A stretch of DNA of 64,000 nucleotides. It comes from Ignavibacteriota bacterium. GTDB lineage: Bacteria; Bacteroidota; Ignavibacteria; UBA10030; SZUA-254. The translations under genes were made by a program, and so were the position numbers. Positions within the stretch are counted from its first letter, which is position 1, and every line of letters starts with the position of its first letter. Below are positions 5,280 to 46,466 of the stretch, piece after piece. The notes under the pieces were generated by a model. The model ran no database searches. It saw only the letters and a program-made list of their open reading frames with translations, and was not told the origin of the DNA. The stretch covers positions 421 through 64,420 of the forward strand of contig JACQVI010000079.1 of the NCBI GenBank assembly GCA_016209795.1, in the 5' to 3' direction.

Positions 5280-5378
5280 CACCTGCCTCCTGATTTCCAG
5301 TAAACACTTTAAGAGGCAACGTAAGAGAGCTCAGTTCAGAACTCTCCCTTCACAAAATAATTCATTGTTATATATCTC

Positions 5379-20915: not shown

Positions 20916-20951
20916 GTTCCTCATGCAAATGAACAACATCCAACACATTGT

Positions 20952-21932: not shown

Positions 21933-21948
21933 CCCCCCTCTGTCATCT

Positions 21949-22917: not shown

Positions 22918-22977
22918 CCATCATGAGTAATCCATCTTATCCGTTATAAGAATACCGTTATCCTCACTAGTCAGAAG

Positions 22978-23961
22978 ATGAAATCTGATATTACAATAGC
23001 GTTCATCTCGGCATTTCATACTCCATTCATTCAGGACGATCTGGAGATATTGGAAAAACATTTCCATGTTCGTAAACTGATCGGCAGTGGTATTCTTCAT
23101 GTGTTCAGAATCATTTTAGGCGTTCTGCGGTCTGATGTCGTTTTTTGCTGGTTTGCATCGGTCTATGCATTTATGGGTGTTGTAGCTGGAAAGGTCTTTG
23201 GTGTGAAGTCAATCGTTATCGTTGGAGGTGTCGATGCAGCGAAAGACAAAGAGTTAGACTATGGTATCTGGTTAAGCCCATGGAGAGCGGTTTTAGTGCG
23301 GTATGTTTTTAGAAACGCAGAAAAAGTTCTTGTCGTTGATCCATGTCTGAGGGATGAAGCAATACGTCTTGCTTCATACGATGGGAACAATATTATGTAT
23401 GTCCCCACTGGGTATGATAGTAATTTTTGGAAGTTTATTGGAGAGAAACAGCCGTTTGTGTTGACGGTTGCTGTCGTGCGTGACAACAGAAACATTCTTC
23501 GGAAGGGGATTGATCTTTTGATAGAAGCAGCGCGTCAACTTCAGCAAATTCAGTTTACCGTCATTGGTGTAGAACCTAACATTGTACTTCCCTTACGCCC
23601 CCCATTGAATGTAACCTTTCACGCTCTCATGCCGCGCAGTGATCTGTTGCCTTTTTACCAACAGGCGAAAGTGTATTGTCAGCCTTCACGGCGAGAAGGG
23701 TTACCCAATTCGCTTTGTGAGGCAATGTTATGTGGCTGCATTCCTGTTGCAACTAATGTGAGTGGTAATCCCACTGCAATCGGTGATGCCGGTATTCTTA
23801 TCTCATCAGGTGATATTCAAGCTCTTGTCAGTGCTCTTCAGTTTGCGATGACTTTAGATGATAGTATTGCAACTAAAGCACGAATGCGTGCGGTCTCTCT
23901 TTTTTCCCAACAGAAGCGTGTCAATGAATTGCTTCGACTCGTTAAGGAATTAACTCGGTGA
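22978..23961 (+). CDS. glycosyltransferase family 4 (GT-B)
   Basis: C-terminal EGLPNSLCEAMLCGCIPVAT E-x7-E-like motif. Confidence 0.7.
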   Translation: MKSDITIAFISAFHTPFIQDDLEILEKHFHVRKLIGSGILHVFRIILGVLRSDVVFCWFASVYAFMGVVAGKVFGVKSIVIVGGVDAAKDKELDYGIWLSPWRAVLVRYVFRNAEKVLVVDPCLRDEAIRLASYDGNNIMYVPTGYDSNFWKFIGEKQPFVLTVAVVRDNRNILRKGIDLLIEAARQLQQIQFTVIGVEPNIVLPLRPPLNVTFHALMPRSDLLPFYQQAKVYCQPSRREGLPNSLCEAMLCGCIPVATNVSGNPTAIGDAGILISSGDIQALVSALQFAMTLDDSIATKARMRAVSLFSQQKRVNELLRLVKELTR

Positions 23962-26908: not shown

Positions 26909-26917
26909 TTAATCGTC

Positions 26918-27793
26918 ATGGAAGTCTTAGCACATTGTCCCATCTGCAATTCCGAGCGACAGAAACCTTTTCTTACATGTATTGATCATCTTGTCTCCAA
27001 AAAGGAGTTTCCTATTGTTCAATGTGTTGAGTGCGGTTTTAGATTTACCAATCCAAGACCGAGTAGGAACGAAATAGGTGAGTACTATAGATCAGAAAAA
27101 TACATTCCACATTCAACCATGAAAAAAGGATTCCTGACCTACGCTTATCACCTTGTACGAAGATATACCCGCACTAAAAAGCTTCGATTGATTTCTACCT
27201 ATTACAAACAAGGAAACCTTCTTGATATTGGATGTGGCACGGGAGAGTTCCTTGATCGTTGTCGGAAAGCAGGCTTTACAACCGTAGGAATAGAACCCAA
27301 TCTTGAAGCGCGAAATTACGCGATGAAGGTTTATAAACTGGATGTTCGTGACGAAGGAGCTCTCAACGACCTCAACAACTCTTCGTTTGAGGTCATTACA
27401 ATGTGGCACGCCTTGGAACACATGCACAAGCTGAATGAAATGGTCATCGAGATCTGTCGGCTACTCAAACCTAACGGAACGCTCTTTATTGCCGTACCGA
27501 ATTGCACCTCAATGGATGCAGCAATTTACAAAACATATTGGGCAGCCTACGATGTACCGAGGCATCTGTATCACTTCACTCCAGCGGACATCACGAAGTT
27601 ATTCGAAAAACATTCCATGAGGATTGAGTCAATTCTTCCAATGTGGTTCGATAGCTTCTACGTCTCCATGATGAGCGAAAAATATAAGAAGGGCATGATG
27701 ATACGAGCATTGTGGAATGGGTTTCGTTCCAATCTGGCAGCTCTCAGAACACGCCAGACGTTTTCAAGCCAGCTGTATGTGATAAAGAAATGA
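26918..27793 (+). CDS. class I SAM-dependent methyltransferase with N-terminal zinc ribbon
   Basis: CPICNS...CVECGF zinc ribbon. LLDIGCGTGEF motif I. Confidence 0.7.
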   Translation: MEVLAHCPICNSERQKPFLTCIDHLVSKKEFPIVQCVECGFRFTNPRPSRNEIGEYYRSEKYIPHSTMKKGFLTYAYHLVRRYTRTKKLRLISTYYKQGNLLDIGCGTGEFLDRCRKAGFTTVGIEPNLEARNYAMKVYKLDVRDEGALNDLNNSSFEVITMWHALEHMHKLNEMVIEICRLLKPNGTLFIAVPNCTSMDAAIYKTYWAAYDVPRHLYHFTPADITKLFEKHSMRIESILPMWFDSFYVSMMSEKYKKGMMIRALWNGFRSNLAALRTRQTFSSQLYVIKK

Positions 27794-28808
27794 ACGCCTT
27801 GATTTCTGAAAATGTTTTCTTTCTTCGAACATAGTACAAAAGAACAATATTTTTTTGAAGTACTCCTGTGATATTAGGAGTTCTCACCTTATGGATAATC
27901 TCTTTCCTTTTTTTGAATGTGTGCCTCAGGTGAACAACGACATAAGCGTAAGCTTTCATGACACTAACATAATCAGCGAAATGACCCTCGAACGCAAACT
28001 TCAACCCTGCTAAGCTGTCCAACAGTATTCTTGAAGCGATGACAAACATCAAGCGGTATGCGGGGACATTCTTCAAAAGCAGTGTTATGCTGTTTCTGAA
28101 GTTGAGATATGTCTTTTGTGGATTGGTCTTAGAAAGCGTTCCTCCGCCGATATGGTACACAGTAGAACGAGGGCAGACCATGATCTTATATCCCATGTTT
28201 TTCCAGCGCCAACACAAATCGATTTCCTCCATGTGTGCAAAGAAATCGTTATCAAACCCCCCCGACTCGTTGAATACATTTGCTCGTATAACCATGCAAG
28301 CACCACTTGCCCAAAAGACTTCCTTAGAATCATCGTACTGCCCTTTATCTTCTTCGACAGTGTTAAATATTCTGCCCCTGCAAAAAGGATAACCATATTT
28401 GTCAATGTACCCACCCGAAGCACCTGCATATTCGAATTTTTCTCTATGGGTATACGATTTGATTTTTGGTTGACAAGCAGCTACTGTAGGATCATTATCC
28501 AAAAGCTCAATGAGTGGCTCAATCCATTCTGGTGTGACTTCGACATCAGAATTGAGCAATACGTAGTATTCGTAGTCGAGTTGTTGTAAGGCATCGTTGT
28601 ATCCCTGAGCAAAGCCAAGATTTTCAGGAAATCTTATAATCTTCACTTCTTTGAAATTTGTTTGAATGAAACTGACGGAATCATCATGGGAACCATTATC
28701 CACGACGACGATATCTGCAATGCGGTGACTGTGAGTGATGACGGAAGGAAGGAATTGCTTGAGATATTCCTTTCCATTCCAGTTTAGAATGACGACTGCA
28801 ACTCTCAT
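27744..28808 (-). CDS. glycosyltransferase family 2
   Basis: VVILNWNGKEYL and DNGSHDDS (GT-A DXD region). Confidence 0.8.
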   Translation of the reverse strand: MRVAVVILNWNGKEYLKQFLPSVITHSHRIADIVVVDNGSHDDSVSFIQTNFKEVKIIRFPENLGFAQGYNDALQQLDYEYYVLLNSDVEVTPEWIEPLIELLDNDPTVAACQPKIKSYTHREKFEYAGASGGYIDKYGYPFCRGRIFNTVEEDKGQYDDSKEVFWASGACMVIRANVFNESGGFDNDFFAHMEEIDLCWRWKNMGYKIMVCPRSTVYHIGGGTLSKTNPQKTYLNFRNSITLLLKNVPAYRLMFVIASRILLDSLAGLKFAFEGHFADYVSVMKAYAYVVVHLRHTFKKRKEIIHKVRTPNITGVLQKNIVLLYYVRRKKTFSEIKAFISLSHTAGLKTSGVF

Positions 28809-28996
28809 TGAATGTTAGCCCAATATAACGAGAGGTGCTACAATTTGCAACACTATGATATTGGTAGAATGATTGGTAATTTTTATCTTATGTCACTATA
28901 TTCATGACAACATGGTGACTCTATAAAAGGTAACAACGATGAGCTTATTTATTGTCTATTCAAATCTAAAATCCCAAATCGCAAATCAAAAATAGA

Positions 28997-30034
28997 GTGA
29001 ACATCTGTCTTGCTACATACCAATCTGCCGTTTTGCTCAAAGGAGGACCTCGTACACAAATTTTTCAGACGAAGCGTTGTCTGGAAGAGCTTGGTGTCAA
29101 CGTTACACTCTTCGAGTCCTGGCAAGAATTTCGTGCGGATAAGGTTGACTTGATTCATTTGTTCGGTGCTAACATCGGTACGTACCATTTGGCACGTGAA
29201 ATACACAAGCTCGGTGTTCCGATGGCAGTGACGCCGATTTTTTTTAGTAGGCATGCTGTGCCATTTCTTCGAGTTGTTACTGGCATTGATGGACTTGTAC
29301 GACGATTTGTAAGAGGCACCTGGATAGATTATGGTCTAGTTGCTGATATCTGTTCGTGGGCAAGAGTGGTACTTCCGAACACGAAGCGGGAAGCTTATCT
29401 TCTGGAGAAGGGACTCGGTGTTGATAAGGATAAGATTACTGTTATTCCTAACGGTGTGGAAGAGCGATTTTACTATGGCGATCCAGCACTTTTCAAACAA
29501 CAGTATGAAGTTGATAATTTTGTTCTCAATGTAGGGCATATTGGTCCGGGAAGAAAAAATGTACTCCGCTTGATCCGCGCATTAGAAAAAATCAATGTAT
29601 CCGCTGTCATCATCGGGAGGATTGAACATAATGAGTATGGTCGCCGGTGTTGTGAAGAAGCAAAGAAAAACCCACGTGTGCTCATCTTGGATACCATTCC
29701 CAATGAATCCGATCTTCTTCCATCAGCCTATGCTGCCTGTGATGTGTTTGTTCTGCCTTCGCTGTTTGAAACCCCCGGAATTGCAGCACTCGAAGCAGCC
29801 CTAGCCGGTGCTAAAATCGTGATCTCAAAACATGGTGGAACGGAGGAATACTTCGGTTCACACGCAGAGTATGTTGAACCGACATCAGTTGAGCTGATTC
29901 ATCATGGCATTGTTACAGCACTTAACAAGAAAAGGGACGGCACTCTTCGCGAACGTATGAGAAAAGAATTTCTATGGGAGCGAGTAGCCGCACAAACAAG
30001 GGATGTGTATGAAAACGTTCTTACTTCCAGATAA
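28997..30034 (+). CDS. glycosyltransferase family 4
   Basis: C-terminal FVLPSLFETPGIAALEAALAGAKIV motif. Confidence 0.7.
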   Translation: MNICLATYQSAVLLKGGPRTQIFQTKRCLEELGVNVTLFESWQEFRADKVDLIHLFGANIGTYHLAREIHKLGVPMAVTPIFFSRHAVPFLRVVTGIDGLVRRFVRGTWIDYGLVADICSWARVVLPNTKREAYLLEKGLGVDKDKITVIPNGVEERFYYGDPALFKQQYEVDNFVLNVGHIGPGRKNVLRLIRALEKINVSAVIIGRIEHNEYGRRCCEEAKKNPRVLILDTIPNESDLLPSAYAACDVFVLPSLFETPGIAALEAALAGAKIVISKHGGTEEYFGSHAEYVEPTSVELIHHGIVTALNKKRDGTLRERMRKEFLWERVAAQTRDVYENVLTSR

Positions 30035-30818
30035 TCGACACCGGAGAAAGTTTGTCGTCTTCATTTCGACGCTGTTGATAGCCGGATGTGGGTCTTCGCC
30101 GCTCTCACGCTATCCAGATTTTCCTGAGCGGAAAAAGAGTATACAAATAGCTACTGTTATGATAGATTGCAGCATCGTGGAAGCGATCCTTGGGGATACA
30201 GATAAAGTAGATCTTCCGAGGAATCGAGAGATTGGAACGATGTGCCTAAATTTATTTGCAGGAATGCTCAACCAAAAGGACTATCATGTAGAAAAAACAT
30301 TCCTCTCTTCAATAGGCATGCTTATGAAACCCGACCGCGTCAGCAGAGTCGTGCGAACTCAAGAAGATCAACACCTTGATAATGAATTACTCCCGATCAG
30401 TTCTCCTCCGTTCTATATACATGAAGCGTATGGCAAAGATTCCCTTGGTAAACGTGCTCTTGCGGCGGTATATATATCATTGATAGGGACAATGAAGCAG
30501 GAAGGGGAAGCCAATCCCATTATTCCTGAAGCCACTCTTTTTCAGAATGAAGCAGGGGACGGTGTGCTGTTCATCGTGATGGTTGGAGGCATTGAGGTAC
30601 CAGCAAGCAAACAATTTGGTGAGAGAACTGTTTCCAGGAGCCAAACAGAACCTGCAGTAGCGATCCAGCCGATCACGCAAGTTTCGGTGTTCTTGTTTGT
30701 TATTGATACAAAAAATGGTGAAGTCATATGGGATGACCATATCTTCAAGAAGGGCGGTACAATTTATCCGGAAAAGATTCTCAAAATGGCGGGTCATCTT
30801 ATTGAAAATTTACCTTGA
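30003..30818 (+). CDS. hypothetical lipoprotein
   Basis: Lipobox LLIAGCGSS. No homology recognised. Confidence 0.4.
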   Translation: MCMKTFLLPDNRHRRKFVVFISTLLIAGCGSSPLSRYPDFPERKKSIQIATVMIDCSIVEAILGDTDKVDLPRNREIGTMCLNLFAGMLNQKDYHVEKTFLSSIGMLMKPDRVSRVVRTQEDQHLDNELLPISSPPFYIHEAYGKDSLGKRALAAVYISLIGTMKQEGEANPIIPEATLFQNEAGDGVLFIVMVGGIEVPASKQFGERTVSRSQTEPAVAIQPITQVSVFLFVIDTKNGEVIWDDHIFKKGGTIYPEKILKMAGHLIENLP

Positions 30819-35365: not shown

Positions 35366-35570
35366 GTTGACATTCATTCCACAAGCGAGTATATTTCTAA
35401 CAGTAAAGTAAGACCAATGAGAGCTGTGAATGGTCGGTTTGTATCTTGCCTCTATAAAAGAAATAAACGCAATAGCTCGTTAACACAATAGTTAGAAGGC
35501 GGCATTTTGCTCCAGCACAGAAGATTCGACACCAGATGATCAATCAATTACAAGCGTAAATCAAGCATTC

Positions 35571-37205
35571 ATGATGACACAGACATATATTCCGAGAGCG
35601 AACGGATGGAGGCAAACGTTACTGATATTTTGGTTTGTTTCTATCTTTCTTGAGTCCGAAGGAGCCCGTTCTCAGGACATCATCGTTGAAGAACACCCGA
35701 ATCATTACATACTTCTTGTAGATGCTTCCGGTTCAATGCTGTCCACAAAGGCGAAGGCTAATGCGCTTCGAAATATTTTGTTTGATACACTAAGCAATCG
35801 ACTTTTTCGTTTGGGTTTCGGCGAGAATATACCGCCTCTTGATCTCAATCGAGATTTCATCACCATGCATACTTTCGGAATCGTGGAGAAGGACTCTTCG
35901 CCAGCATATTTGCGACTCAAGGGTTATGATTTCCAGAAAGACTTTGTTCATACCATCATCTTGAGGGAGAGGTTAGTATCACCCCAGTACTTAACAGCAC
36001 GATTGTATCCGAATCGTTTTTTCGAATTGACAGTTCTTGGCTGGGCGAAGCAGTTAGGATTATCGGCATCCCGACCAGATTCACTAAATACGACCGCAAA
36101 CCGTACGTTCCTCATATTCATTCACGATGCAGAAACCAACGAAAGCTCTCTTGCTGAGGAGCTAATAATGGCCGAACGATGGTCCAACTCAGCAAGTTTT
36201 GAGCAAGCAAAGAGAATTGTCCGTGATATTGACCGCGACTACGGGTTTTATGATGCACAGGGGGAAAGACGGTGGGCTTGGCAACTGAGGTATCATTTGC
36301 CCAATCAACCAAGTCAAACCATATATCTCGAAGCGTACGAAGTTATTGCAGCTAATCTCCTGAAACTTCAAGGCGAGTCAAGATCAATACGTCCCTTCGC
36401 CGATATGAGGGTCAGATGGGTCAACGAGAAAAAAACGAATTCAGAAGGGATATTGAGCTACTCATTTGAAGAAACTTTTTTGACTTGGATTAACTCATTT
36501 CATCCGACCGAGATGACTGTTCACTTCAATTTCACGCGCAATACGACCTCATCTGTACAGCCATTTATCCCCTCAGCTGAGACTCCCTTTAAGTATTCTG
36601 ACACTCTCTCCTGTGATACGAGGGAGGTTAATATCGCATTCCAGGTTCCACTGCATCAATTGGACGCGTTGCTGGGAACGAGAAATATGCAGTTCGTCGT
36701 TGACCATTCACTCACGTTGCCTAAGCCTTTCCGATGCACGATAGAGTTCTTCCTGTTCACGTTGTCCACTGCCACAATTTCAATACTGCTGTTGACCACC
36801 ATAATTTATACAATCTACTTCAGATTCTTCGCAACCCATGTATTTCTTGAACTCCCTGGACTTGTGAAACCAATTCGAATTCGACGGAATACAGTCCTGA
36901 CCCAGGCAATCACCATTGCACCACAAACAAACTTAGAAGTCTTCTCCGTGCTCTTACCTCCCCAATTGATACAGAGACTTTTCTACCGACATGCTTCGTT
37001 ACTTATAAAGACCACCAATCAAGGTCTCTGCAAATGGCAAGATGAGGGAAGCGATTCAACAGTGATTAGACTACCACATAATAAGAAGCGAGTTAATGCT
37101 CTCTGGACTAATCTACCAAGCGGGCCAACAGTTGTTGCTTTGCTTTTTCGGCAGGCCCATTCTGAGTCACAACTCCACGTCGAATATCCAAAAGGAACTA
37201 ATTGA
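35571..37205 (+). CDS. membrane-anchored vWA-like domain protein
   Basis: N-terminal signal/anchor. MIDAS-like YILLVDASGSM (DxSxS). One strong TM helix (FFLFTLSTATISILLLTTIIYTIYF) before a ~130-aa C-terminal tail. Confidence 0.45.
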   Translation: MMTQTYIPRANGWRQTLLIFWFVSIFLESEGARSQDIIVEEHPNHYILLVDASGSMLSTKAKANALRNILFDTLSNRLFRLGFGENIPPLDLNRDFITMHTFGIVEKDSSPAYLRLKGYDFQKDFVHTIILRERLVSPQYLTARLYPNRFFELTVLGWAKQLGLSASRPDSLNTTANRTFLIFIHDAETNESSLAEELIMAERWSNSASFEQAKRIVRDIDRDYGFYDAQGERRWAWQLRYHLPNQPSQTIYLEAYEVIAANLLKLQGESRSIRPFADMRVRWVNEKKTNSEGILSYSFEETFLTWINSFHPTEMTVHFNFTRNTTSSVQPFIPSAETPFKYSDTLSCDTREVNIAFQVPLHQLDALLGTRNMQFVVDHSLTLPKPFRCTIEFFLFTLSTATISILLLTTIIYTIYFRFFATHVFLELPGLVKPIRIRRNTVLTQAITIAPQTNLEVFSVLLPPQLIQRLFYRHASLLIKTTNQGLCKWQDEGSDSTVIRLPHNKKRVNALWTNLPSGPTVVALLFRQAHSESQLHVEYPKGTN

Positions 37206-37220: not shown

Positions 37221-39278
37221 ATGCAGGAAGCCAATTCAGACAAAACGGAAAAGCAAAGGACAAACGAAATCTCCTACTATGTAGCGCTCGATTTGGGGTC
37301 TGAGTCAATGTCTGCTTACTTTGAAGAGAAGGACTATTCTAAGTTCGATATGGTGGACTTGCAAGCACATGCAAAGACCTTGCTCGGACAAGATCCTGAA
37401 TACCTGATGGAAGAAGTTGAGAATCTTCAGAAGAAAAGTCCACGCCTGAGAACACGGATATTCATTCGCGACAGGAAACAGCCTTCAAGCCTATCGCTCA
37501 ATCATGCAAAATTAGATTTCATCCATAAGAACGGAACGAAACTCCCTGGTTACGATGAATCGCTCTTTGGTCTTTTCGCTGCACCGAACACATGGGTACT
37601 TGGAGGAATGATGCCCAATCCTAAAATCCCATTCCAATATGGTGCCCAAGAAATCATCCCGGAAGTGGAACCACAAGGCGGTGGAATAAAGGTGAAGCAT
37701 AACCCCGAGGTACTGATACAGCATCTCACTGCGCAGATTGTGCGTAATCTTGTGCTGTTGTCTCCCGAATTGCAAAACGTCGACCCTTCAAGCATTGAGC
37801 TTTTGCTGACAGTTCCGAATGTATATAGCTTACCTCATGTGGAAAGCCTCTGCTCATTCCTGCAAACGAACAGTGGCGTGAAAACCGTAAGGGCAGTAAG
37901 CGAGTCAGATGCTGCTGTGTACTTCGTGCTTGACCTTCCTCGAAATACCGATCTCACGGAGGTCAGCGAATTCAAAGGCAGAATCAGGAACAGGAAGGAC
38001 AAGGATTACTTGAGAATTGTTTCTATTGACATTGGACGTGGCACTACCGACTTGAGTGCTATTGAAGTGAAGCCACCACTCAACTCTCAAAGCCCACAAA
38101 ATCTGGTACGCTTGGCAGTCGTTGGCAAGAGTGATGGAGGAAATCGACTGAGTTACATTTTAGCTGAATACTTCAACAAACAGTTTATACATTTTCGACC
38201 AAGGATCGAATCGACCCTGGGAAAGAGTGTGCGATTCTCATTCCTTGAAAAGGAGCCGACCATTCCGACACCTTGGTCCGAGGCCATAGTAGCCTTAGAA
38301 ACCCTGATAGAAAGAATCAAGCGTTCTATCACAGAAAAACATTATGTGGGTTTGCAATCTGACCAGACAATTACAAACAGAATTCTCTCCAAGATCTGTC
38401 AACTAACTGATCCGAATTGGCAAGACAATAACGCTGACAAGTTCCAGGCACTTTTGGATGAGCTAACTGACCAAGGTTTTCTATCTCTGCCAGATTATTT
38501 ACCGCGGGGACTGCGCAGATGGTGGTGGCAAATTTTTTACAAGTCAAATAGGCTGAAACAGATACAATGTGACCTATCTATTGCAATTGAGAAATATGTG
38601 CAAGAAAATGTCTCAGAACTTCTTTCGCAATTAGTTCAAATGTACGCGGCTCGAGATGCTCGCTATACTTCCAAGGTTAGGTCTGCAGGCAAGGACCTCT
38701 TCGATCATAGGTGCACATTCGTAGTTATCTTGGGACAAGCAGCTCAGCTCGCTCCTATCCGATCGGCGATTCGCAGTAAGTTGTCTGAATTTGACTTCCC
38801 ATGGGAAACGAACATGCTTTGCTTGGACGGTCCGATTGCCAAGGAGGCTTGTTGTAAGGGTGCAGTTAGCTACGCCCGTTCGAAAGCAAAACTGACCAAT
38901 GATGACGAACTGATGGGTACATTTGGTATGCTTTCCCGTGTCACTCCGTTTGGGTCTGAGCAAAGTTTCAAAATGTTCAACATGTCAGAAATAAATAGCG
39001 CTAGATCAAGCAGTCAGGTAAGTTTCCCCGCTAAGTCCGAGGCCCTTCTATTCTATTCGTCACGTTTGTATACCAACGGTGAATCGCCAGGCCTGTTTGA
39101 TGGCTATACGGCGATCATCAAGACATTTGAAGGCAGCGAGTTTACATTCAGATATGACCGGCCAAATCGGAAGATTTATGTGAACGATATTCTCGTGGAT
39201 AAGCTTGCAACATACGGAGACATTCAAGAGTCAATCTACTATAAGGTCTGGCCGGAAGTGTTAAAACCGATGCAGTAG
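37221..39278 (+). CDS. Hsp70/actin-fold (ASKHA) ATPase, cytoplasmic, divergent
   Basis: Phosphate-1-like VALDLGSESMSAYF, connect-1-like VSESDAAVYFVLD and phosphate-2-like IVSIDIGRGTTDLSAIEV. No TM segments. Confidence 0.55.
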   Translation: MQEANSDKTEKQRTNEISYYVALDLGSESMSAYFEEKDYSKFDMVDLQAHAKTLLGQDPEYLMEEVENLQKKSPRLRTRIFIRDRKQPSSLSLNHAKLDFIHKNGTKLPGYDESLFGLFAAPNTWVLGGMMPNPKIPFQYGAQEIIPEVEPQGGGIKVKHNPEVLIQHLTAQIVRNLVLLSPELQNVDPSSIELLLTVPNVYSLPHVESLCSFLQTNSGVKTVRAVSESDAAVYFVLDLPRNTDLTEVSEFKGRIRNRKDKDYLRIVSIDIGRGTTDLSAIEVKPPLNSQSPQNLVRLAVVGKSDGGNRLSYILAEYFNKQFIHFRPRIESTLGKSVRFSFLEKEPTIPTPWSEAIVALETLIERIKRSITEKHYVGLQSDQTITNRILSKICQLTDPNWQDNNADKFQALLDELTDQGFLSLPDYLPRGLRRWWWQIFYKSNRLKQIQCDLSIAIEKYVQENVSELLSQLVQMYAARDARYTSKVRSAGKDLFDHRCTFVVILGQAAQLAPIRSAIRSKLSEFDFPWETNMLCLDGPIAKEACCKGAVSYARSKAKLTNDDELMGTFGMLSRVTPFGSEQSFKMFNMSEINSARSSSQVSFPAKSEALLFYSSRLYTNGESPGLFDGYTAIIKTFEGSEFTFRYDRPNRKIYVNDILVDKLATYGDIQESIYYKVWPEVLKPMQ

Positions 39279-39294: not shown

Positions 39295-41220
39295 ATGCAA
39301 ATCACCAAGCTGGTAGTATTAATTCTATTCTTGGCTATCGGGAACGTTTGTAGAGCGAGTCAAGACGAAGGCAGCCCCATCCTCTACAATTTTATGAGCG
39401 AGACCAATGTTTATCTCTGGGTCTCTCGAGCTGACCAACAACCAACAATCGCAACCATAAACAACGGGAAGTGGGACATCCCGAATACAGCACTGAATAA
39501 TCCTCGATGGAAGCAGCTGATTTCTTCGATTGTAAGCGGCGATTTTTCCTACCAAGATAAGTGGGCAAAATTCCTTGAGAAACTGCGCCTTGAGTATCCT
39601 GACACTACGTGGGCTAAACCGAGATTCCCGAACATTGAGATGTATGTTCGCATTCGTAGTAAGGATTCTGTTGCTGTTCAGATTCTGATGAGGCCTGACT
39701 TCTATGCCGAGTATGCTTTTGTCAAGAAGGAGACATGGGCAAAATCTGCAGATATCCCGACAGACAAAATATTGAACCTTCCGTACCGAGATCCGAATCT
39801 AACGAACATCTTCAACAAGGAAGCAACCGCACACAAGTGGGTGGATTCATGGCACAAATGGATAGAGTCCCGGATCGAGGAGCAAGACTCTATTCGTTCC
39901 ATAATGTATGCGGATAAAGATGGTAAATCCCTTTGGATCATCCAGGAACGGGTCACAGAAAGCAACTGGGTCTCCCGCTCAATGCGAAAGATGCCACCTA
40001 AACCAATTCTCATTGAAAAAACAGACGTTGTTGAAGTGAAGAAGACGGATGTTCTCATGTTACTTATTGTTGCTGCGTTTTCATTACTCTTAGGATTCGT
40101 TTCGCCGTGGCGCCTTTCTTTTATCCAACGTCTCATACCACTCCTATATCGAAGGAAGAAGCCCCAGATTCCAAACGTCGATGATGTCTCTTCGGGGCAT
40201 TTTGAGCAGCGTCTCACTGGGGTAAACAGGACTCGTCCAATTGTCGCAGAGAACAAGATTCAGAAGATCATATCCTCACAAGCTAACATAGAAAAGCTTT
40301 ACCAAATTTTCACAACGTATGAGAAACGCCAAGAGACCTTTTTGATTAATCTCCACGAGCAATTGGAGTCATTGTTCACCGAACTCCACACTAACACCTT
40401 GGAAGAATATGGTGTAGATGGACTTCAGTCTGATGAAGCTAAGCTGCTTCTAAGCTTAGGAACCTCCGCCAAAGAATGTCTTAGGAAATTGGATAGCTTT
40501 ATTGCCCAGGATCGTTTCCCAGCCAATCTGTTTTCGAATGATGCACATGCAACCTGGCTAAACGAGATTCCAGTGGTGTTGGTTTCGCTTAACGATCAAT
40601 TATCTAAAGCAAAACATCAATCCTCAGCGACCAGAGACAAGTTATTAGCGACTTCAGAAGAACTGAACCAAACGAAGAACCAGCTGCGAGAATTACAGGA
40701 TGTGAATAACCAGCTCGTTACTAAAGTCAGTAAGCTCGAACAGGAATATGGTAACATTCGCCGCCAACAGGAAGAATTGAATAGCCGCATGGAAGACCTA
40801 CACAAGGTAGAAAGCCTTGCTGTCTATTTAGAACAAGGCGAAGGGTATGTGCTCGCCCAGACGGATAACCCTGAGCAAGCTGCTATCGTCAGCTTTCTCT
40901 CCACGTACGCACTATTTCATCTTTGGGGGGCTACACTTAACAAACATTCAGAGAAAAGAGAAGTCATGCTTGCTAACATCTACTCTATTGCAGATAAGCT
41001 CAGATCATATCGTGGTTTTGATGTTGTTCTCAATGAGGTTGATACGACTGCACGAGCAGTGAATGAACTAGAGACATTACTGGGGAAGTCCCAAGAGAAA
41101 CATCATATTGCGCATCTGTTCCAAGTCTTACTGAGACGGCTAAGAGATATCAGTTCAGTTGACTTAGCTCCATATTACATAGGTCTTGATAAGTATGGGA
41201 AGTTATTCAAAGTAGCATGA
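39295..41220 (+). CDS. bitopic membrane protein with periplasmic N-domain and long cytoplasmic coiled-coil
   Basis: Signal peptide. Single TM (VLMLLIVAAFSLLLGFVSPW). Heptad-rich segment KAKHQSSATRDKLLATSEELNQTKNQLRELQDVNNQLVTKVSKLEQEYGNIRRQQEELNSRMEDL. Confidence 0.45.
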   Translation: MQITKLVVLILFLAIGNVCRASQDEGSPILYNFMSETNVYLWVSRADQQPTIATINNGKWDIPNTALNNPRWKQLISSIVSGDFSYQDKWAKFLEKLRLEYPDTTWAKPRFPNIEMYVRIRSKDSVAVQILMRPDFYAEYAFVKKETWAKSADIPTDKILNLPYRDPNLTNIFNKEATAHKWVDSWHKWIESRIEEQDSIRSIMYADKDGKSLWIIQERVTESNWVSRSMRKMPPKPILIEKTDVVEVKKTDVLMLLIVAAFSLLLGFVSPWRLSFIQRLIPLLYRRKKPQIPNVDDVSSGHFEQRLTGVNRTRPIVAENKIQKIISSQANIEKLYQIFTTYEKRQETFLINLHEQLESLFTELHTNTLEEYGVDGLQSDEAKLLLSLGTSAKECLRKLDSFIAQDRFPANLFSNDAHATWLNEIPVVLVSLNDQLSKAKHQSSATRDKLLATSEELNQTKNQLRELQDVNNQLVTKVSKLEQEYGNIRRQQEELNSRMEDLHKVESLAVYLEQGEGYVLAQTDNPEQAAIVSFLSTYALFHLWGATLNKHSEKREVMLANIYSIADKLRSYRGFDVVLNEVDTTARAVNELETLLGKSQEKHHIAHLFQVLLRRLRDISSVDLAPYYIGLDKYGKLFKVA

Positions 41221-41252: not shown

Positions 41253-44200
41253 ATGGAATTCTTCATCATACCTCAGCTTACTTTGACTTTTGCGTTAGCT
41301 CTTCTGATATCGAGAAGTAGCCAAGAGACATTAGTCGGAGTATCAAAGTACTTCTTCATAGCATATTCTTGGTTCACGTGCGGATTACTCGTTTGGATGA
41401 TAACTTATTTCATTGGATTGGGCGACAACGGGACACCAAGGTTGTCGCTGGAGGAGCAACGACGAATTGTACACTTGGGTTACTATGTAGATCCGGATAG
41501 TTCAATTACTTTCAGTGGAGAGGGTTTTGAGAATTCCTTTCCTCACCAAGTCCTAAGTAACAACGATCGGATAAGACTAACACCTCTCTTTGGCCCTAGT
41601 ACTCTCAGAGCGACGAAATGGTTGGTTGAACATGAGATTCGCAGCCAACCCTTGAGACTCGATGATTCATGCGTAAACATCTCTCAACAAATGTGGCTGG
41701 CTCCAGGAGATACCTTCTCTGCTTATATCTACAGGGAGAGCGGCCCGCTTTTTTTCCGTCTCAGATGGGTAGTTGACACAACGTGGTGGGGTAGAGTCCA
41801 AAACAAATACTATTATACACAAGGTGTCTTCAGAAATGGGCTGGCAAATTACGAAATACGTGATACGGTGTTTTCAAAAAGCGCGCTGAGAGAAGGCCGC
41901 AAGCTGAGCGTAATGATGAGTTTGTGGGCTCAAAGAGAAAAAGAAGTATCTCAGCGTATTAACTCAACTTTATGGAATATCTTTCGAGGCATTACTTTCG
42001 TACGCGAGAAAAGAAATGACATTCTATCCAGGATAGGCCTGCTCATTGCTGATTCTTTGCTAGAAGAGTCCAATATTACGTTATACAAGAACTCTTCACG
42101 CCTTACCCGAGAAAGTGCCAACAGGGTAATAGAAATTCCTTTTTCTACCCATGTCGAGTGTGGGCTTGGGGCAAGCGATAAGCTCTCCCTTGTTCTTACA
42201 GATACGTTATCAAACGATAGCTACTTGGGCAATGTCCTCGAAGTCCGGTTTGAAAAACCCTATCGCTGGCCGCTGCCTCCAAAGCCTGACCAATATTTTA
42301 TCACAACCACCACCGATGATTTCATCCCTAGAGATGGCTATCGGATAAGCCTCGGACAATCAACAAATCCACTGTACGCGAAGTGTGTTCTGAATCGGGC
42401 AAGAGACACCATCGAAATAACTGATGGCAGGAGTGTCAGAGCTTTTCCATTGGGCGGTGTTATTAGGCTAGGGGACTTCCAACGTGGAGCAATCCTCTCT
42501 CTAGGGTCTGTAAACACTTTCGCAACTCTCCCATTGATTAGTAGCCAGCTGTACAATATTGGAGTTACAGCAACCTTGTTTCTTTTGATTTTGACTCTAT
42601 TAGTTACTTGGCTTCATTTTACAGAGAAGTACTCCCGTCCGAGGCTCGATGTTGGTTGGGTCGTGGTTTGGGGAGTAATGCTCACGATACTTACAGTGCG
42701 CCTTGTCTTATCGTATCGGGCAAGCTTATTGGCTCCAGAAGATGCGACACCGCGTGAGGTATTGGAAGTCTTTAGAAAGAGCCTCGATCTGAGCCTACTT
42801 GGCCTGCTCTTGATCCCATTATTGTTCATAGTCACACGTTGGTGTTGCCGAGATCACATAGAAGGTTTGTTTAGCAAAACCATTGCCGTTCTCAGGAAAC
42901 ATAAAACCATTGTATTACTGACATCGGCCATTGGGGCAGTTGCAATCTTCTCATGGCACATCCATTTCCAAAAACTCATTCAGGAAGCCTCTGAAGTCGA
43001 ATGGTTTCATTGGATCATGATTGGGGTATTACTTTTCGTCTGCAGTCTAGTTTGGATTCTGATGCGCAAGTGGAGAATCTACCTTGGGTGGGCCGCTGTT
43101 ATCCTTGCGTGGGTCCTTGTCGCCCATTTTTTTGGTATTGGTGAATCATTCTTCGGCCGCGTGAATATCGCAACGCACGTCTTCATGATAGTAGCCCTTC
43201 TCTCAGTGTCCAAACGAATCGTCGCTAATGCCAGCGTTATCGATTATACCATGGGCTTTTTGATTATCGTCGTTGGAATAGTGGCGGTCGTGGTTATCAT
43301 AGGTGATCGGGGGTTCATAATCTATACTCCGTCTTTGGTAACATTCCCGTTGTTGTGTCTTTTCTGGAATCGCCAATCAATCAACAACATCGTCTCTGAC
43401 GGACGTATCTACATCAGTTCACGATTACCTTTGGTTTTAGCTGGAATCATCAGTTTCGTTCTGCTCGTGGCGCTTCTCTCACAACTCGAGTGGAGGAGCC
43501 AAGTAATAAATCCTCGTAATCTTGAATCGCTCCATTACCGTTTAGCGAGCTTCACTGACACAGAAGAGTCTATTCTTCTCGCTCGTGAGGAAGATAGAAA
43601 CTTCAATCTGGATATGCTGCTCAGAAACTCGCATCAAGATTGGCAGATGAAGTTGTATGCGTCCGAAGGTGCTGATAGCGCGAGAGGATACGGAAAAGCG
43701 CCTCCGTCTGACATAGGAATGACTTATGCGACCTCATCTTCAGATTGCGTTTTCTCAACTTACTTGCTTGCAGAACACGGCTCCTTTGCGGCGCTGTCAG
43801 TTGTATTGTTGTATTTAACCCTAGCTATTGTTGTTTGCTTTGCTGCCTTGCATTTTCCAATCGACTACCAGCATCGTCTACTAACGTTGATCGCAATTGC
43901 ATCTTTCTTCGTGGCTAATTGTTTGTACATGGCAAGTACCAATGTTGGCTTGGCTCCCTTCACGGGTCAAAACATACCGTTACTTTCACTTCACTCTGGA
44001 TCAGATCTTGTGCAAGGATGTTTGCTTTTGCTTCTTCTCTCAGTTCTTCTATCCAAAGGGGTACATACGAGCACAGGTGTTGCACTTCCGGGGAACCCCA
44101 TCGTACGCAAGGTCGTTTTCTTTGTGATCATCCTGATCATTTTCTGGTTTGTGGCTCTCACCTTCTCTATCATTAATGTTGCTGCTAAAGACGATTATAG

Positions 44201-46466
44201 AAAAGACCATGACTTCCGCAGCACCTACCCCGGCCTTAAAGAATCTCTGCCTGACATTGATAACCCGGAGCGTGCCACACGCTGGAAATTGGTCGGTGAG
44301 AATTTGTTGCGACGCGCGGGCAGCTTCGCCATTCCGGGAATCGATGCTCTCATTGCGCAATTTAACGAAAAAGCCAACAAGTACGATGCTAACAATAACC
44401 TGATTTATCTCGCAGTCCACCCGACGAAAGGAGATACGGTCGTCGCAGTCAACCGAAATTATTTTAGACTTCGTTCTCCGTTCAGAATCGATTCGATCTG
44501 GACCGGAATAATCCTTTCGAGGTCGGATCCTGCCGCACCTACTATCAGTGGATTGGGGGGATCGTTCAGAATCAGTCTCCGCGATAGAGGACATGCTGAG
44601 AAGATTTCTTTGGGCGAGTCACCACCATTAATTACGACAAGGGCAGTGCAGATCACTGATCCAGGACGTAACGATGCATTCTTTGAGTTGATCCGCAGAG
44701 GTGAGGAGCTATTCCTTGAACGAAAAATAGGAGACTGGGAGATTTCGGTTAACGGGTCTAGGGTGACCTCACCGGTGAGGTTAAATCCATTCGATATTAT
44801 TTCCTTGGCAAGAAAGCAAAGACCATCCCACCAAGTACAATCTCGTTATAGGCTGACCACATTTTACTACTTAGGAATACAACATCCCATCTTCGCTTTT
44901 ACACAATGGAGAAATGGCAGGACCCGTCGGCTGTTTCCAGAAGGCGAAGTGTTCCCGCTCTCGTACGCTTTGGCGAAAAGCATGGACGAACTCCCACACC
45001 GACCTGATACCTTGGCTATTTCGCTCAACTTGTCACTACACACTTCTCTACAAAATGAGATAGCTGCGTTTGCAAGCAGATATCCACAGTACTCAGATAA
45101 TGAACCTCTCTCCACTCGCAAGCTCGCAGTGACATTAATCGATGCTTTTTCAGGCAAATTGCTTGCCATTCCATCGTGGCCCTTCATTAGTCCAAACCAA
45201 TTCGATTTTGAGGAAAAACTAGTACGGGCAACACCTACTGAGCAAATGCGGCTGGTCAACAATCATAATTTCACGAATCATCCCATTGGTTCAACTATCA
45301 AACCGCTCGTGTTGGCTTCATTAGCAACGATGTTGTGGCCAGAGGTTGACGTGTCGAGGATCTCTGTTTCAAATATTGCGGATAATACCACAGGTCACGA
45401 AACTGGAAACCGTGAGTACCGACATCCTCATGTGCGAGTTGGAAGTCATGAGCTAGAAGCGATTTGGGATTGCAATAGTGAACAGTCCTCGATCAACGCC
45501 CATGATTTTATCATCCATTCGAGAGACTATTACATAGGCATGATAGGGGTCCTCGGAATGCTCACGGATAGGAGTGACTGGACCAGAGTACTCAACCAGG
45601 AAGGAACAGGAAACAGGATAATATATGGTAACAGAACATACTCAATCAATATGTACAACGCCCGCATGTCGCCCTTTGTTTGGGACGGTACTCGAATTAC
45701 TGGTCTCCGTACTCAATCGAGCATGGACAGTACCTTCCTTTTTAAGGGGCTTTCTTCCGCCTTCGGGGCAGGTCTCTCAACCAGTTACAAATTAATGTTG
45801 AATCGATCTGTTGCTGACTTCTTCCCTTCCTTGCATAGGATGAATCTGCCCGTCATTGATAGCTTAGAGTCAATGTATCTAGATAACGTCGTTCCCGAGC
45901 CAGTATTACTTCACTTTGGAGAAACTTCCCAACTTCTGCGTCGCGATTTGATTACTTTCTTACTCGGGGCAGGCCAGTGCCGATGGAACAACGTAATCAT
46001 GGCCCAATCTGCTGCCCGTGTTGCGACTGGTAGAGCAGTAACTGCAACCTTGGAGTTAGATAATGTGGAAGAAAATCCGCGCGCGTTTCCTCTCTTACAC
46101 CCACCAATGGATAATAGACAATGGCGCTATGACAACCTGATCACACCTATGAGGCTTGTTGGAGTGCGAGGTACAGCTGATTCATTGAGGAATCTAGTTC
46201 AATCACCATTCGTTGCCATTTACAAAACTGGCACAATTGAAGAGAGGGAACGTGGACCGGAAAGCGAGTGGCTTCTTTTTGTAGTCGGTAGATTACAGAA
46301 TGACAGTTTCGTTCCTGGTGAAACAGTAGCGGGCTTCTTCTATATGCAGGAGTCAAAAGACCGATACGGGCCTATGAAGAAGTTCGAACTTGCACGCCCG
46401 ATTATCACTCGTGTCGTTGATTATCTTAAGCGCGTTTCAACAGTGTCACAACATTACGATGAATGA
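41253..46466 (+). CDS. giant (1737 aa) SEDS (FtsW/RodA/SpoVE-like) glycosyltransferase fused to a class B penicillin-binding protein transpeptidase, with a ~420-aa N-terminal extracytoplasmic extension and extra TM helices
   Basis: SEDS blocks: SSSDCVFSTYLLAEHGSFAALSVVLLYL (compare SDFIFsvigEELGfiG; D831 at nt 43743) and GLAPFTGQNIPLLSLHSGSDL (compare GllPvTGvPLPFiSYGGSS). Transpeptidase motifs: SxxK = STIKP (S1347, nt 45291), SxN = SIN and KTG = KTGT (K1658, nt 46224). Confidence 0.7.
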   Translation: MEFFIIPQLTLTFALALLISRSSQETLVGVSKYFFIAYSWFTCGLLVWMITYFIGLGDNGTPRLSLEEQRRIVHLGYYVDPDSSITFSGEGFENSFPHQVLSNNDRIRLTPLFGPSTLRATKWLVEHEIRSQPLRLDDSCVNISQQMWLAPGDTFSAYIYRESGPLFFRLRWVVDTTWWGRVQNKYYYTQGVFRNGLANYEIRDTVFSKSALREGRKLSVMMSLWAQREKEVSQRINSTLWNIFRGITFVREKRNDILSRIGLLIADSLLEESNITLYKNSSRLTRESANRVIEIPFSTHVECGLGASDKLSLVLTDTLSNDSYLGNVLEVRFEKPYRWPLPPKPDQYFITTTTDDFIPRDGYRISLGQSTNPLYAKCVLNRARDTIEITDGRSVRAFPLGGVIRLGDFQRGAILSLGSVNTFATLPLISSQLYNIGVTATLFLLILTLLVTWLHFTEKYSRPRLDVGWVVVWGVMLTILTVRLVLSYRASLLAPEDATPREVLEVFRKSLDLSLLGLLLIPLLFIVTRWCCRDHIEGLFSKTIAVLRKHKTIVLLTSAIGAVAIFSWHIHFQKLIQEASEVEWFHWIMIGVLLFVCSLVWILMRKWRIYLGWAAVILAWVLVAHFFGIGESFFGRVNIATHVFMIVALLSVSKRIVANASVIDYTMGFLIIVVGIVAVVVIIGDRGFIIYTPSLVTFPLLCLFWNRQSINNIVSDGRIYISSRLPLVLAGIISFVLLVALLSQLEWRSQVINPRNLESLHYRLASFTDTEESILLAREEDRNFNLDMLLRNSHQDWQMKLYASEGADSARGYGKAPPSDIGMTYATSSSDCVFSTYLLAEHGSFAALSVVLLYLTLAIVVCFAALHFPIDYQHRLLTLIAIASFFVANCLYMASTNVGLAPFTGQNIPLLSLHSGSDLVQGCLLLLLLSVLLSKGVHTSTGVALPGNPIVRKVVFFVIILIIFWFVALTFSIINVAAKDDYRKDHDFRSTYPGLKESLPDIDNPERATRWKLVGENLLRRAGSFAIPGIDALIAQFNEKANKYDANNNLIYLAVHPTKGDTVVAVNRNYFRLRSPFRIDSIWTGIILSRSDPAAPTISGLGGSFRISLRDRGHAEKISLGESPPLITTRAVQITDPGRNDAFFELIRRGEELFLERKIGDWEISVNGSRVTSPVRLNPFDIISLARKQRPSHQVQSRYRLTTFYYLGIQHPIFAFTQWRNGRTRRLFPEGEVFPLSYALAKSMDELPHRPDTLAISLNLSLHTSLQNEIAAFASRYPQYSDNEPLSTRKLAVTLIDAFSGKLLAIPSWPFISPNQFDFEEKLVRATPTEQMRLVNNHNFTNHPIGSTIKPLVLASLATMLWPEVDVSRISVSNIADNTTGHETGNREYRHPHVRVGSHELEAIWDCNSEQSSINAHDFIIHSRDYYIGMIGVLGMLTDRSDWTRVLNQEGTGNRIIYGNRTYSINMYNARMSPFVWDGTRITGLRTQSSMDSTFLFKGLSSAFGAGLSTSYKLMLNRSVADFFPSLHRMNLPVIDSLESMYLDNVVPEPVLLHFGETSQLLRRDLITFLLGAGQCRWNNVIMAQSAARVATGRAVTATLELDNVEENPRAFPLLHPPMDNRQWRYDNLITPMRLVGVRGTADSLRNLVQSPFVAIYKTGTIEERERGPESEWLLFVVGRLQNDSFVPGETVAGFFYMQESKDRYGPMKKFELARPIITRVVDYLKRVSTVSQHYDE

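Follow-up and report, generated by a model that had tools for sequence, protein, structure and literature searches.

What does a protein of the Hsp70 kind do in an operon that ends with a putative cell-wall synthase? Pairs of SEDS polymerases and class-B penicillin-binding proteins (bPBPs) are at the core of peptidoglycan synthesis and are important targets of antibiotics, and the well-studied pairs all operate, to our knowledge, under the actin-fold proteins FtsA or MreB via bitopic adaptors. The question is raised by a gene, here called B (37221..39278; all features given below lie on the + strand), in the analysed stretch of 64,000 nucleotides, hereafter the window. It codes for a predicted Hsp70-like ASKHA ATPase of 685 residues and is second in a tight operon, A-B-C-D, with intergenic gaps of 15, 16 and 32 nt. 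Gene A (35571..37205) codes for a bitopic protein of 544 residues with a predicted periplasmic vWA domain, gene C (39295..41220) for a bitopic coiled-coil protein of 641 residues, and gene D (41253..46466) for a giant polytopic protein of 1737 residues that putatively unites a SEDS-like polymerase and a class-B PBP transpeptidase in a single chain. B thus lies between two bitopic membrane proteins, as a preliminary description of the locus had reported.

The B ORF opens with ATG, about 8 nt downstream of a ribosome-binding-like AGAGGGA. A sigma-70-like promoter match (35367..35395; TTGACA-17-TATATT, 11/12, a match to the consensus only) sits in the 205-bp gap 5' of gene A and likely marks the start of the four-gene operon, and no convincing terminator-like site was seen between the A, B, C and D genes. 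In the window the operon is surrounded by ordinary genes of the chromosome, and neither mobile nor defence genes occur within ~10 kb. Membership of a housekeeping divisome or Rod complex was rejected, since no dcw or mre genes were found near the operon, carriers of the module are very few, and one genome (L001) has it on an island.

B is a real, very divergent Hsp70-type ATPase. It conserves the ASKHA motif set, as read from an alignment of 46 homologues (26-45% identity). In phosphate-1 (37275..37310, residues 19-30, YYVALDLGSESM, with the string YYVALDLGSES at residues 19-29) D24, G26 and S27 are invariant. Connect-1 (37893..37937, residues 225-239, AVSESDAAVYFVLDL; the connect-1 string SESDAAVYFVLDL covers residues 227-239) has invariant E228 and S229, and D230 and A231 conserved at >=90%. 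Phosphate-2 follows (38016..38063, residues 266-281, IVSIDIGRGTTDLSAI, with SIDIGRGTTD at residues 268-277), where D270, G272, G274, T275, D277 and S279 are invariant, and then an adenosine-type motif (38715..38765, residues 499-515, FVVILGQAAQLAPIRSA) with invariant G505 and P512, Q506 at >=90%, and, in the structural model, a strand at 499-505 followed by a helix. K135 is also invariant. Because the nucleotide-site residues do not vary over the 46 homologues, the three motif strings first quoted for phosphate-1, connect-1 and phosphate-2 are, judged from sequence, more than chance resemblances, and B presumably hydrolyses ATP. The ORF also bears out the earlier picture of a soluble protein, with no hydrophobic segment found, and its C-terminus (...WPEVLKPMQ) indeed lacks an EEVD tail.

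The divergence of B is evident from family searches. There was no Pfam or NCBIfam match at E<=0.01, HSP70 (PF00012) included, and phmmer against PDB returned nothing. A profile of B reached DnaK in PDB at a sub-threshold E=0.2. With hhalign, the phosphate-2 region aligned with E. coli DnaK 187-245 (probability 87%, E=3.9e-6, over 53 columns only), and the N-terminal third and the C-terminal domain of B gave no meaningful alignment to DnaK.

Structure prediction gave the two-lobed ASKHA fold that had been expected of B: in the model a nucleotide cleft lies between two RNase-H-like lobes. The closest fold in two fold searches is Hsp70/Hsp110, and the nucleotide-binding domain is nearer to Hsp70 than to other ASKHA branches. 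A long helical insertion of ~190 residues (residues ~307-495) is placed in lobe IIB, and the protein ends in a beta-rich domain (38886..39275, residues ~556-685). In the model this domain seems to sit where ATP-state Hsp70 has the docked beta part of its substrate-binding domain (SBD-beta); about 80 extra residues of B align with ATP-BiP in the fold search, and the TM-score is higher against docked full-length DnaK. The C-terminal domain has no sequence similarity to SBD-beta, and no helical lid is recognisable in B. As no sequence alignment to DnaK SBD-beta was obtained, it is therefore the fold-search statistics that carry this assignment. The preliminary description had found no recognisable substrate-binding domain; this holds at the sequence level, but the model shows a C-terminal domain that appears to resemble SBD-beta.

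The product of gene A comprises an N-terminal hydrophobic helix, an ectodomain with a predicted Rossmann-like vWA fold, a beta-sandwich (residues ~275-382), a transmembrane segment (TM) at residues 387-419 and a cytoplasmic beta domain (residues 425-540). The MIDAS motif DxSxS...T...D is present (D51-A-S53-G-S55, T98, D186); in 20 sequences D51, S55 and D186 are conserved at >=90%, and S53 and T98 are more variable. A profile of A found no vWA match among PDB sequences. In 23 natural fusion proteins the C-terminus of A is joined to the N-terminus of B via a linker of ~20 residues; one of these fusions is 1159 residues long. The predicted topology, like that of the other module proteins, comes from the sequence, and it puts the vWA domain and the B-linked tail on opposite sides of the membrane. 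The product of gene C has a signal-like N-terminus, an extracytoplasmic domain (residues ~25-250), a TM (residues 253-271) and, on the cytoplasmic side, a coiled coil (residues ~430-510) and a conserved C-terminal domain (residues ~510-641). Its profile matched generic coiled coils among PDB sequences and nothing specific. C-like genes come after B at most loci.

The PBP identity of the C-terminal part of D (44118..46463, residues ~956-1737) is clear. A TM anchor (residues 956-974) leads into a pedestal-like region and then a transpeptidase domain, whose active-site motifs stand in order (S1347-T-I-K1350, S1423-R-D, K1658-T-G): SxxK, SxD and KTG are invariant, with S1347/K1350, S1423 and K1658-T1659-G1660 unchanged in 16 orthologues. 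In PDB the D profile matched Thermus thermophilus PBP2 (6pl5_B) at E=1.7e-7 and, between 1e-6 and 1e-4, MrdA and FtsI; the NCBIfam model pbp2_mrdA matched weakly, and the Pfam Transpeptidase model was found in only 2 of the 16 members (E~1e-3). An FHA-like stretch at residues ~1155-1180 was dropped, the region being part of the periplasmic pedestal and nothing supporting it.

Two N-terminal TMs of D are followed by a soluble domain (41430..42557, residues ~60-435), probably cytoplasmic by topology reasoning, which is conserved among D orthologues and gave no match in the PDB profile search. The membrane domain behind it (42558..44063, residues ~436-937) is a divergent SEDS-like candidate, with weak to moderate alignment. 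It has ~10 TMs, after which come a 104-residue loop that ends at invariant D831 (SSSDCVFS...AEHG) and three further TMs, and FTGQNIPLLSLHSGS stands between the last two TMs. By hhalign, the full-length D profile aligned with a profile of 66 SEDS sequences at E=1.9e-5 (probability 77%, 231 columns, RodA 107-347) and a TM-only run at E=2.5e-4 (43%, reaching RodA 357); against RodA and FtsW alone the probability was 8%, which is too weak. In the alignment with RodA, D685 corresponds to the Asp of PDLGT, D831 to the Asp of HTDFIF, and FTGQN.PLL to VGVPLPLVSYGGS, so that residues of D stand in register with RodA D262/E270, D159 and G333/P336; RodA D262 is an essential residue. The SEDS hallmarks present are the long-loop Asp, the PDLGT Asp, the PLPxxSYGGS-type loop and the three TMs after the long loop; D831, E841 and F903/G905/Q906/P909 are invariant and D685 is conserved at >=90%. 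A tblastn search with FtsW reached the D gene of locus L006 at E=4e-4. The assignment is thus made on moderate profile-profile scores: PF01098 was not detected in D by Pfam, and the PDB profile search with the D family matched neither RodA nor FtsW. Of the SEDS-PBP that the preliminary description had placed downstream of B, the class-B PBP module stands clearly, and the SEDS identity of the membrane domain remains at weak to moderate alignment.

The module is conserved and has spread horizontally between phyla. The order B, bitopic protein, D was found at 11/13 closer species loci and at 3 distant Bacteroidia loci, and it occurs in Acidobacteriota, Aminicenantes, Armatimonadota and distant Bacteroidia. 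In one distant genome A, C and D are orthologous (31-37% identity), though D is inverted there. The Armatimonadota loci have no recognisable A. The distribution is rare and patchy: a pattern-limited scan of ~185,000 species genomes gave 16 carriers, and 1.84 billion representatives yielded 132 clusters at E<1e-30. The linkage to bitopic and SEDS-like/PBP proteins is thus kept across phyla, and B is not a stand-alone chaperone with different neighbours elsewhere.

Since an Hsp70-type B occurs in a conserved module with a SEDS-like/PBP giant, the module may represent an undescribed way of controlling cell-wall synthesis. With about even confidence, we propose that D is controlled by B acting as a nucleotide switch tethered to the membrane, analogous to FtsA or MreB though neither of these, within a self-contained, horizontally transferable trans-membrane module A-B-C-D. 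The catalytic output would be D, whose single chain would combine a divergent glycan polymerase of SEDS type with a class-B PBP transpeptidase and make cross-linked peptidoglycan. B would be the cytoplasmic ATPase subunit, composed of the nucleotide-binding domain and the docked beta domain and tethered through the cytoplasmic tail domain of A, and the vWA/MIDAS domain of A and the ectodomain of C would look into the periplasm. Cycling between ATP and ADP would alter the clamp of B on cytoplasmic parts of A, C and/or the N-terminal domain of D, and binding at the ectodomains would lead B to switch or position the synthase. The A-B fusions speak directly for contact between these two proteins; the other contacts, and the direction of signalling, are what such a mechanism would presumably entail. 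In favour of the proposal, one B homologue bears a C-terminal TM and a polysaccharide deacetylase, a type of enzyme that modifies envelope polysaccharides. Counting against it are the moderate SEDS scores, the indirect assignment of the C-terminal domain of B, the Armatimonadota loci with no recognisable A, and the loci and fusions described next in which B goes with other partners.

More tentatively, and as a possibility that we hold doubtful, the module could be a third kind of SEDS-bPBP machine, so far unrecognised and horizontally mobile, in which a single-chain polymerase/transpeptidase is under an Hsp70-type ATPase and a periplasmic vWA sensor with no actin homologue; its Hsp70-like core would be re-used with TIR, kinase and NACHT partners, and wall synthesis would serve as inducible envelope defence or repair. 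Besides the TIR domains found in at least 4 B homologues, one with an SxWCxxE-type motif, others carry a Ser/Thr kinase or HEAT repeats, and because of these fusions the B core would seem able to serve outputs besides wall synthesis. Some loci have B and C and no D: L028, ordered NACHT, HEAT-B, C-like, mini-A and transposase, and L011, where B occurs with four C paralogues.

These variants also bear on the strongest competing explanation, a system of conflict or immunity. Together with the tail domain of A, the B-C core would then be an NTP-dependent sensor or threshold device, in the manner of the chaperone-centred systems of Kaur et al. 2020, with D, TIR, kinase and NACHT as interchangeable effector or signalling parts; the periplasmic vWA domain would serve to recognise invaders or damage to the envelope, and D would be an emergency wall remodeller rather than a growth machine. 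We regard this as unlikely, if worth keeping in sight. Along with the TIR, kinase and HEAT fusions and the NACHT locus without D, it draws on L001, where an island carries the entire cluster, between IS elements and an integrase adjoining the tmRNA gene, on a caspase-like gene upstream at L005 and a restriction-modification pair near L027, and on the patchy distribution. Divergent Hsp70-like proteins are moreover known to accompany HEAT-repeat, coiled-coil and vWA proteins in accessory operons, including those of defence (PMC11090510, PMC7159879). However, PADLOC-DB v2 gave no match to A, B or D at E<=1, and for C weak coiled-coil-type matches to LmuB, PbeC and JetC (E>=1.8e-4); tblastn of B found no match in phage and plasmid collections; the window operon has the ordinary chromosomal surroundings described above; and the dominant partner at most loci is an enzyme of biosynthesis whose active sites are intact, untypical of an abortive-infection effector. 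Rarity and patchiness, the tmRNA-island site of one genome and the variants with TIR, kinase, HEAT or NACHT favour an accessory module, possibly one related to conflict, over a housekeeping cytoskeleton.

Much less probable is that B is an actin-like filament former, a cytoskeleton of FtsA/MreB type that polymerises on the membrane via A and C and guides or scaffolds D. The phosphate-2 GTTD of B resembles GGGTTE of MreB, the connect-1 region aligns with that of MreB, and the setting of a SEDS-like/bPBP protein with bitopic adaptors recalls both the divisome and the Rod complex. Against this, Hsp70 and Hsp110 rank higher in both fold searches, DnaK outscores MreB by profile, orthology-level similarity of B to MreB or FtsA was not found, and the large helical insertion and the beta domain docked on the nucleotide-binding domain in the model are Hsp70-like. 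The covalent fusion to a membrane protein in 23 homologues fits a stoichiometric subunit more easily than a free polymer, though it still allows one. The suggestion in the preliminary description of a cytoskeletal or organising role rather than a chaperone thus gains from the conserved linkage and the A-B fusions, but a domain like SBD-beta seems to be kept and the distribution is of accessory type. A dedicated Hsp70-type foldase that inserts or assembles D or A/C, with no regulatory role, is very improbable: it would suit the closest fold, the possible SBD-beta-like domain and the adjoining very large polytopic protein, but no DnaJ (J-domain) or GrpE domains occur in the operon, its flanks or the annotated neighbours of homologues, no helical lid is recognisable and the sequence shows no similarity to SBD-beta, fusions to a membrane partner tail, TIR, kinase or HEAT are unusual for a foldase, and B stands without D at some loci.

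If the reading of B as a switch for D is true, the control logic of wall synthases would have been built a further time, here with an ATPase of Hsp70 type, a protein with a vWA ectodomain and a synthase whose parts are covalently fused, in a compact operon that travels between phyla. The Hsp70-like branch of ASKHA proteins would gain a family that has no Pfam, NCBIfam or PADLOC model, and the variants with TIR, kinase or NACHT hint that wall synthesis is connected with immune-type signalling in bacteria. The A-B fusions and the single-chain D make the module unusually tractable for structural and biochemical work on crosstalk between a cytoplasmic ATPase and a periplasmic synthase.

No described system joining an Hsp70-like protein to a SEDS-PBP was found in the literature, and Kaur et al. 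2020 mention no FtsW or PBP partners (PMC7159879). Compared with Hsp70/Hsp110 (DnaK, BiP, Sse1), B is only ~12-15% identical and is not matched by Pfam HSP70; it differs by the lobe IIB insertion, the lack of a recognisable lid and of a DnaJ/GrpE partner, and its partners are membrane proteins, often fused to it. CnuD of type III CoCoNuTs and the HSP70 of GTPase-centric conflict systems (Kaur et al. 2020) are divergent Hsp70-like proteins associated with HEAT repeats, coiled-coil proteins and vWA proteins, and some B homologues carry HEAT or TIR domains or adjoin a NACHT gene, whereas the module is without McrBC, GTPase, tubulin or nuclease partners and has a wall synthase instead; the ATPase motifs of B are invariant, and those of CnuD, compared here by their published description, are degenerate (PMC11090510). 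From PilM-PilN and GspL the module differs in domain order, in having vWA as its periplasmic domain and in the absence of pilus or secretion genes from the conserved set. Its nearest analogues in logic would be FtsA-FtsN/FtsQLB-FtsWI and MreB-RodZ-RodA/PBP2, in which a cytoplasmic ASKHA protein likewise acts with bitopic adaptors and a SEDS polymerase/class-B PBP, the module presumably reaching the same arrangement via a different ASKHA branch.

The gene under study, B (37221..39278, + strand), comprises 685 codons from an ATG start, with a purine-rich AGAGGGA about 8 nt upstream. NCBI holds an identical protein from an Ignavibacteriae MAG, labelled hypothetical protein, and no match was found in Pfam, NCBIfam, PADLOC or PDB (phmmer). 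A word-indexed search returned 65 homologues; among 1.84 billion cluster representatives searched by profile, 132 scored E<1e-30 and 685 E<=1e-3. Across 46 aligned full-length members (26-45% identity), residues in phosphate 1 (D24, G26, S27), connect 1 (E228, S229) and phosphate 2 (D270, G272, G274, T275, D277) are invariant, as are K135 and G505, the latter in an adenosine-type motif whose Q506 reaches at least 90% conservation. Such conservation is as expected for a still-active ATPase, an activity predicted here from sequence, and K135 may be equated with the catalytic lysine of Hsp70. The protein contains all three motif strings quoted in the preliminary description of this DNA, which had also called it soluble and devoid of an EEVD tail; indeed, no hydrophobic segment was found, and the C-terminus reads WPEVLKPMQ.

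An AlphaFold2 model built on the same alignment was confident (pLDDT 90.5, pTM 0.91), and all of its top 50 Foldseek matches in the PDB belong to the Hsp70 family, including Hsc70, DnaK, BiP, Ssb, Sse1 and mortalin (E 6e-14 to 1e-10, probability 1.0, identity about 12%). At the profile level, B aligned to E. coli DnaK near phosphate 2 (probability 87%, E 3.9e-6), whereas the probability against MreB was only 14%. These results place B in the Hsp70-like branch of the ASKHA proteins, so divergent that no Hsp70 family model accepts it, and it represents a new family there; the structure search proposed in the preliminary description thus returned an Hsp70-like ASKHA fold. Beyond the nucleotide-binding domain, the model has a helical insertion of about 190 aa (aa ~307-495) and a C-terminal beta-rich domain (aa ~560-685). 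In the model, this last domain likely, if unproven, occupies the SBD-beta docking position of ATP-bound Hsp70; sequence support for an SBD-beta-like identity was not found.

B lies in a tight same-strand cluster with A (35571..37205, +), C (39295..41220, +) and D (41253..46466, +), in which successive genes are 15, 16 and 32 nt apart. The 205-bp gap that precedes A contains a strong sigma-70-like match (TTGACA-17-TATATT), no convincing terminator was found inside the cluster, and its GC content does not differ from that of the surroundings. Ordinary chromosomal genes flank the cluster (thioredoxin-TPR, DinB, FAD oxidoreductase, Na+/solute symporter, thiamine pyrophosphokinase, TonB receptor), and no mobile-element, dcw or mre genes were found among them within the window. 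Elsewhere in the window, a long polysaccharide-biosynthesis cluster (18168-30818) includes a TMEM260-like 915-aa protein, GDP-mannose 4,6-dehydratase, several GT1, GT2 and GT4 glycosyltransferases, a flippase, a deacetylase and a methyltransferase. Two ordinary peptidoglycan-related genes, coding for a SPOR-domain/TPR protein (56082-56861, -) and the anhydro-MurNAc kinase AnmK (61104-62285, -), do not adjoin the operon. A 399-aa ORF with no Pfam match at E<=1e-5 (59895-61094, +) directly follows a phosphotransacetylase gene, a position where acetate kinase might be expected. Far from the operon, a 402-aa protein (680-1888, +) combines an HD domain with PycTM, the transmembrane domain of Pycsar effectors, and may be a stand-alone defence-type effector.

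A carries a vWA domain with a mostly conserved MIDAS-like motif DxSxS...T...D (D51, S53, S55, T98, D186), followed by a beta-sandwich, one transmembrane segment (aa 387-419) and a beta domain of about 120 aa. Because B lacks a transmembrane segment, is predicted to need ATP and is fused elsewhere to the C-terminus of A, we infer that the A tail is cytoplasmic and the vWA domain extracytoplasmic. Homologue searches identified 23 such A-B fusions (~1150-1380 aa), joined at the exact gene boundary of the window through a linker of about 20 aa, and a more distant 1578-aa protein likewise has an A-like N-terminus. The 23 fusions are classical Rosetta-stone evidence that the A tail and B function as a single unit. 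C (641 aa) has a signal-like N-terminus, an ectodomain of about 230 aa, a transmembrane segment (aa 253-271), a coiled coil on the cytoplasmic side and, C-terminally, a conserved domain; sequence libraries gave only generic coiled-coil matches.

D (1737 aa) is very probably a single-chain SEDS-like polymerase and class-B PBP. The preliminary description had named it a SEDS-PBP, and its PBP half is confirmed by profile and motifs: S1347-x-x-K1350, S1423 and K1658-T-G are invariant in 16 orthologues, and class-B PBPs came up when the PDB was searched with the family profile. T. thermophilus PBP2 of the RodA-PBP2 complex scored best (E 1.7e-7), ahead of MrdA and FtsI. A transmembrane segment (aa 956-974) directly precedes the PBP part, as a class-B PBP anchor would. 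SEDS identity of the membrane half is probable. This domain (aa ~436-937), in which D831, E841, F903, G905, Q906 and P909 are invariant in the same orthologues, went unrecognised by Pfam and PDB profile searches. It was aligned by hhalign (E 1.9e-5, probability 77%, 231 columns) to a SEDS profile of 66 sequences (E. coli RodA, FtsW and 64 metagenomic RodA relatives), and three signatures fall in register. PDLGT pairs with (I)GD.G (D685, at least 90% conserved), HTDFIF..EELG pairs with SSDCVFS..AEHG (D831, E841), and PVVGVPLPLVSYGGS pairs with PFTGQNIPLLSLHSGS. The hydropathy also fits, with a 104-aa loop ending at D831, then three transmembrane segments with the last motif between the final two, and FtsW directly matched the membrane domain of a D orthologue by tblastn (E 4e-4). 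An extra N-terminal domain of about 375 aa is predicted to be cytoplasmic.

Linkage was surveyed at 16 loci from one-per-species genomes: 13 closer ones, from Acidobacteriota, Aminicenantes, Rhodothermales and Armatimonadota (Chthonomonas, Abditibacterium, Fimbriimonadales), and three from the more distant Bacteroidia. B, a bitopic protein and D (~1660-1820 aa) follow one another in 11 of the 13 closer loci and in all three Bacteroidia loci. At one exception the contig stops just past B; at the other, a Rhodothermales MAG (L011, 8161-18082), four C-like paralogues in tandem (627, 392, 457 and 326 aa) come after A and B, and no D lies within 10 kb. A distant genome (L001) has A, B, C and an inverted D at 31-39% identity. 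The Bacteroidia versions (L019-L021, including a B. thetaiotaomicron isolate bin) are very distant and ordered B-like (813-855 aa), membrane protein, D-like (~1730 aa) and small transmembrane protein; none of their upstream genes has a Pfam match, and an AAA+ ATPase adjoins the L021 cluster. In Chthonomonas (L012), a 1492-aa membrane protein upstream of B (3317-7792) bears a further Hsp70-like region at aa 1003-1109 (Pfam HSP70, E=2.8e-5), and a transglutaminase-like protein (18691-20001) comes after D.

Several signs mark the A-B-C-D module as accessory and modular. The B family is rare, both among the cluster representatives and in a pattern-limited species-genome scan, and no homologues were found in plasmid and phage collections. 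At least four B homologues carry an N-terminal TIR domain, others bear a Ser/Thr kinase domain or HEAT repeats, and one (P0065, L027 10001-13087) has a C-terminal transmembrane segment and a polysaccharide deacetylase domain (PF01522); its locus includes a restriction-modification pair about 5 kb upstream. In an Aminicenantes MAG (L006, 1-12052), a partial B, C and D are immediately followed by a second B copy (P0073, 1019 aa) with an N-terminal Ser/Thr protein kinase domain. Another locus (L028, 7059-13144) has no D; its genes encode, in order, a NACHT NTPase, a HEAT-repeat-B fusion, a C-like coiled-coil protein, a 167-aa "mini-A" consisting only of the transmembrane segment and cytoplasmic tail domain, and a transposase fragment. 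The whole D/A-B-C cluster of L001 (2916-19891) is island-borne and flanked by IS elements and a tyrosine integrase, with IS1595/DDE transposase genes on one side and RadC, PD-(D/E)xK, an excisionase-like HTH, the integrase (18599-19468) and a tmRNA gene (19544-19891) on the other. The integrase abuts the tmRNA gene, beside smpB, a classic integrated-island layout.

The best-supported reading, at about even confidence, makes B a membrane-tethered nucleotide switch that would govern the D synthase. In such a trans-membrane assembly, the vWA/MIDAS and beta-sandwich of A, the C ectodomain and the pedestal and transpeptidase of D would be periplasmic, and the A tail domain, B, the coiled coil and C-terminal domain of C and the N-terminal domain of D would form the cytoplasmic face. 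Depending on its ATP/ADP state, B would grip the cytoplasmic parts of its partners and so turn on, position or assemble the synthase in response to ectodomain ligands. It is rather unlikely that the module serves conflict or immunity, with outputs that vary between D, TIR and NACHT: the TIR, kinase and HEAT fusions, the island-borne L001 cluster and published precedents of Hsp70-like proteins in defence operons (PMC7159879, PMC11090510) speak for it, but there is no PADLOC match and D is biosynthetic in nature. The switch and immunity readings overlap, in that the module may serve as an inducible device for repair or defence of the wall. A true filament-forming cytoskeleton appears improbable; from the FtsA/MreB-like role put forward in the preliminary description, the fold and a conserved coupling to a wall synthase stand, and the Hsp70-like character is stronger than the cytoskeletal one. 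That B is a dedicated assembly chaperone, its Hsp70-like fold notwithstanding, is more doubtful still.

We found no description of the A-B-C-D module in the literature, and curated family models accept none of the four proteins: A and B drew no match, and C and D only sub-threshold ones. The combination of a vWA protein, an Hsp70-like ATPase, a coiled-coil protein and a single-chain SEDS-like/class-B PBP seems previously undescribed. The underlying theme of an ASKHA ATPase, bitopic adaptors and a SEDS-bPBP is already known, and the module is therefore not rated categorically new. FtsA-FtsN/FtsQLB-FtsWI and MreB-RodZ-RodA/PBP2 follow the same functional logic as the switch proposed here, although B is a member of neither the FtsA nor the MreB family.
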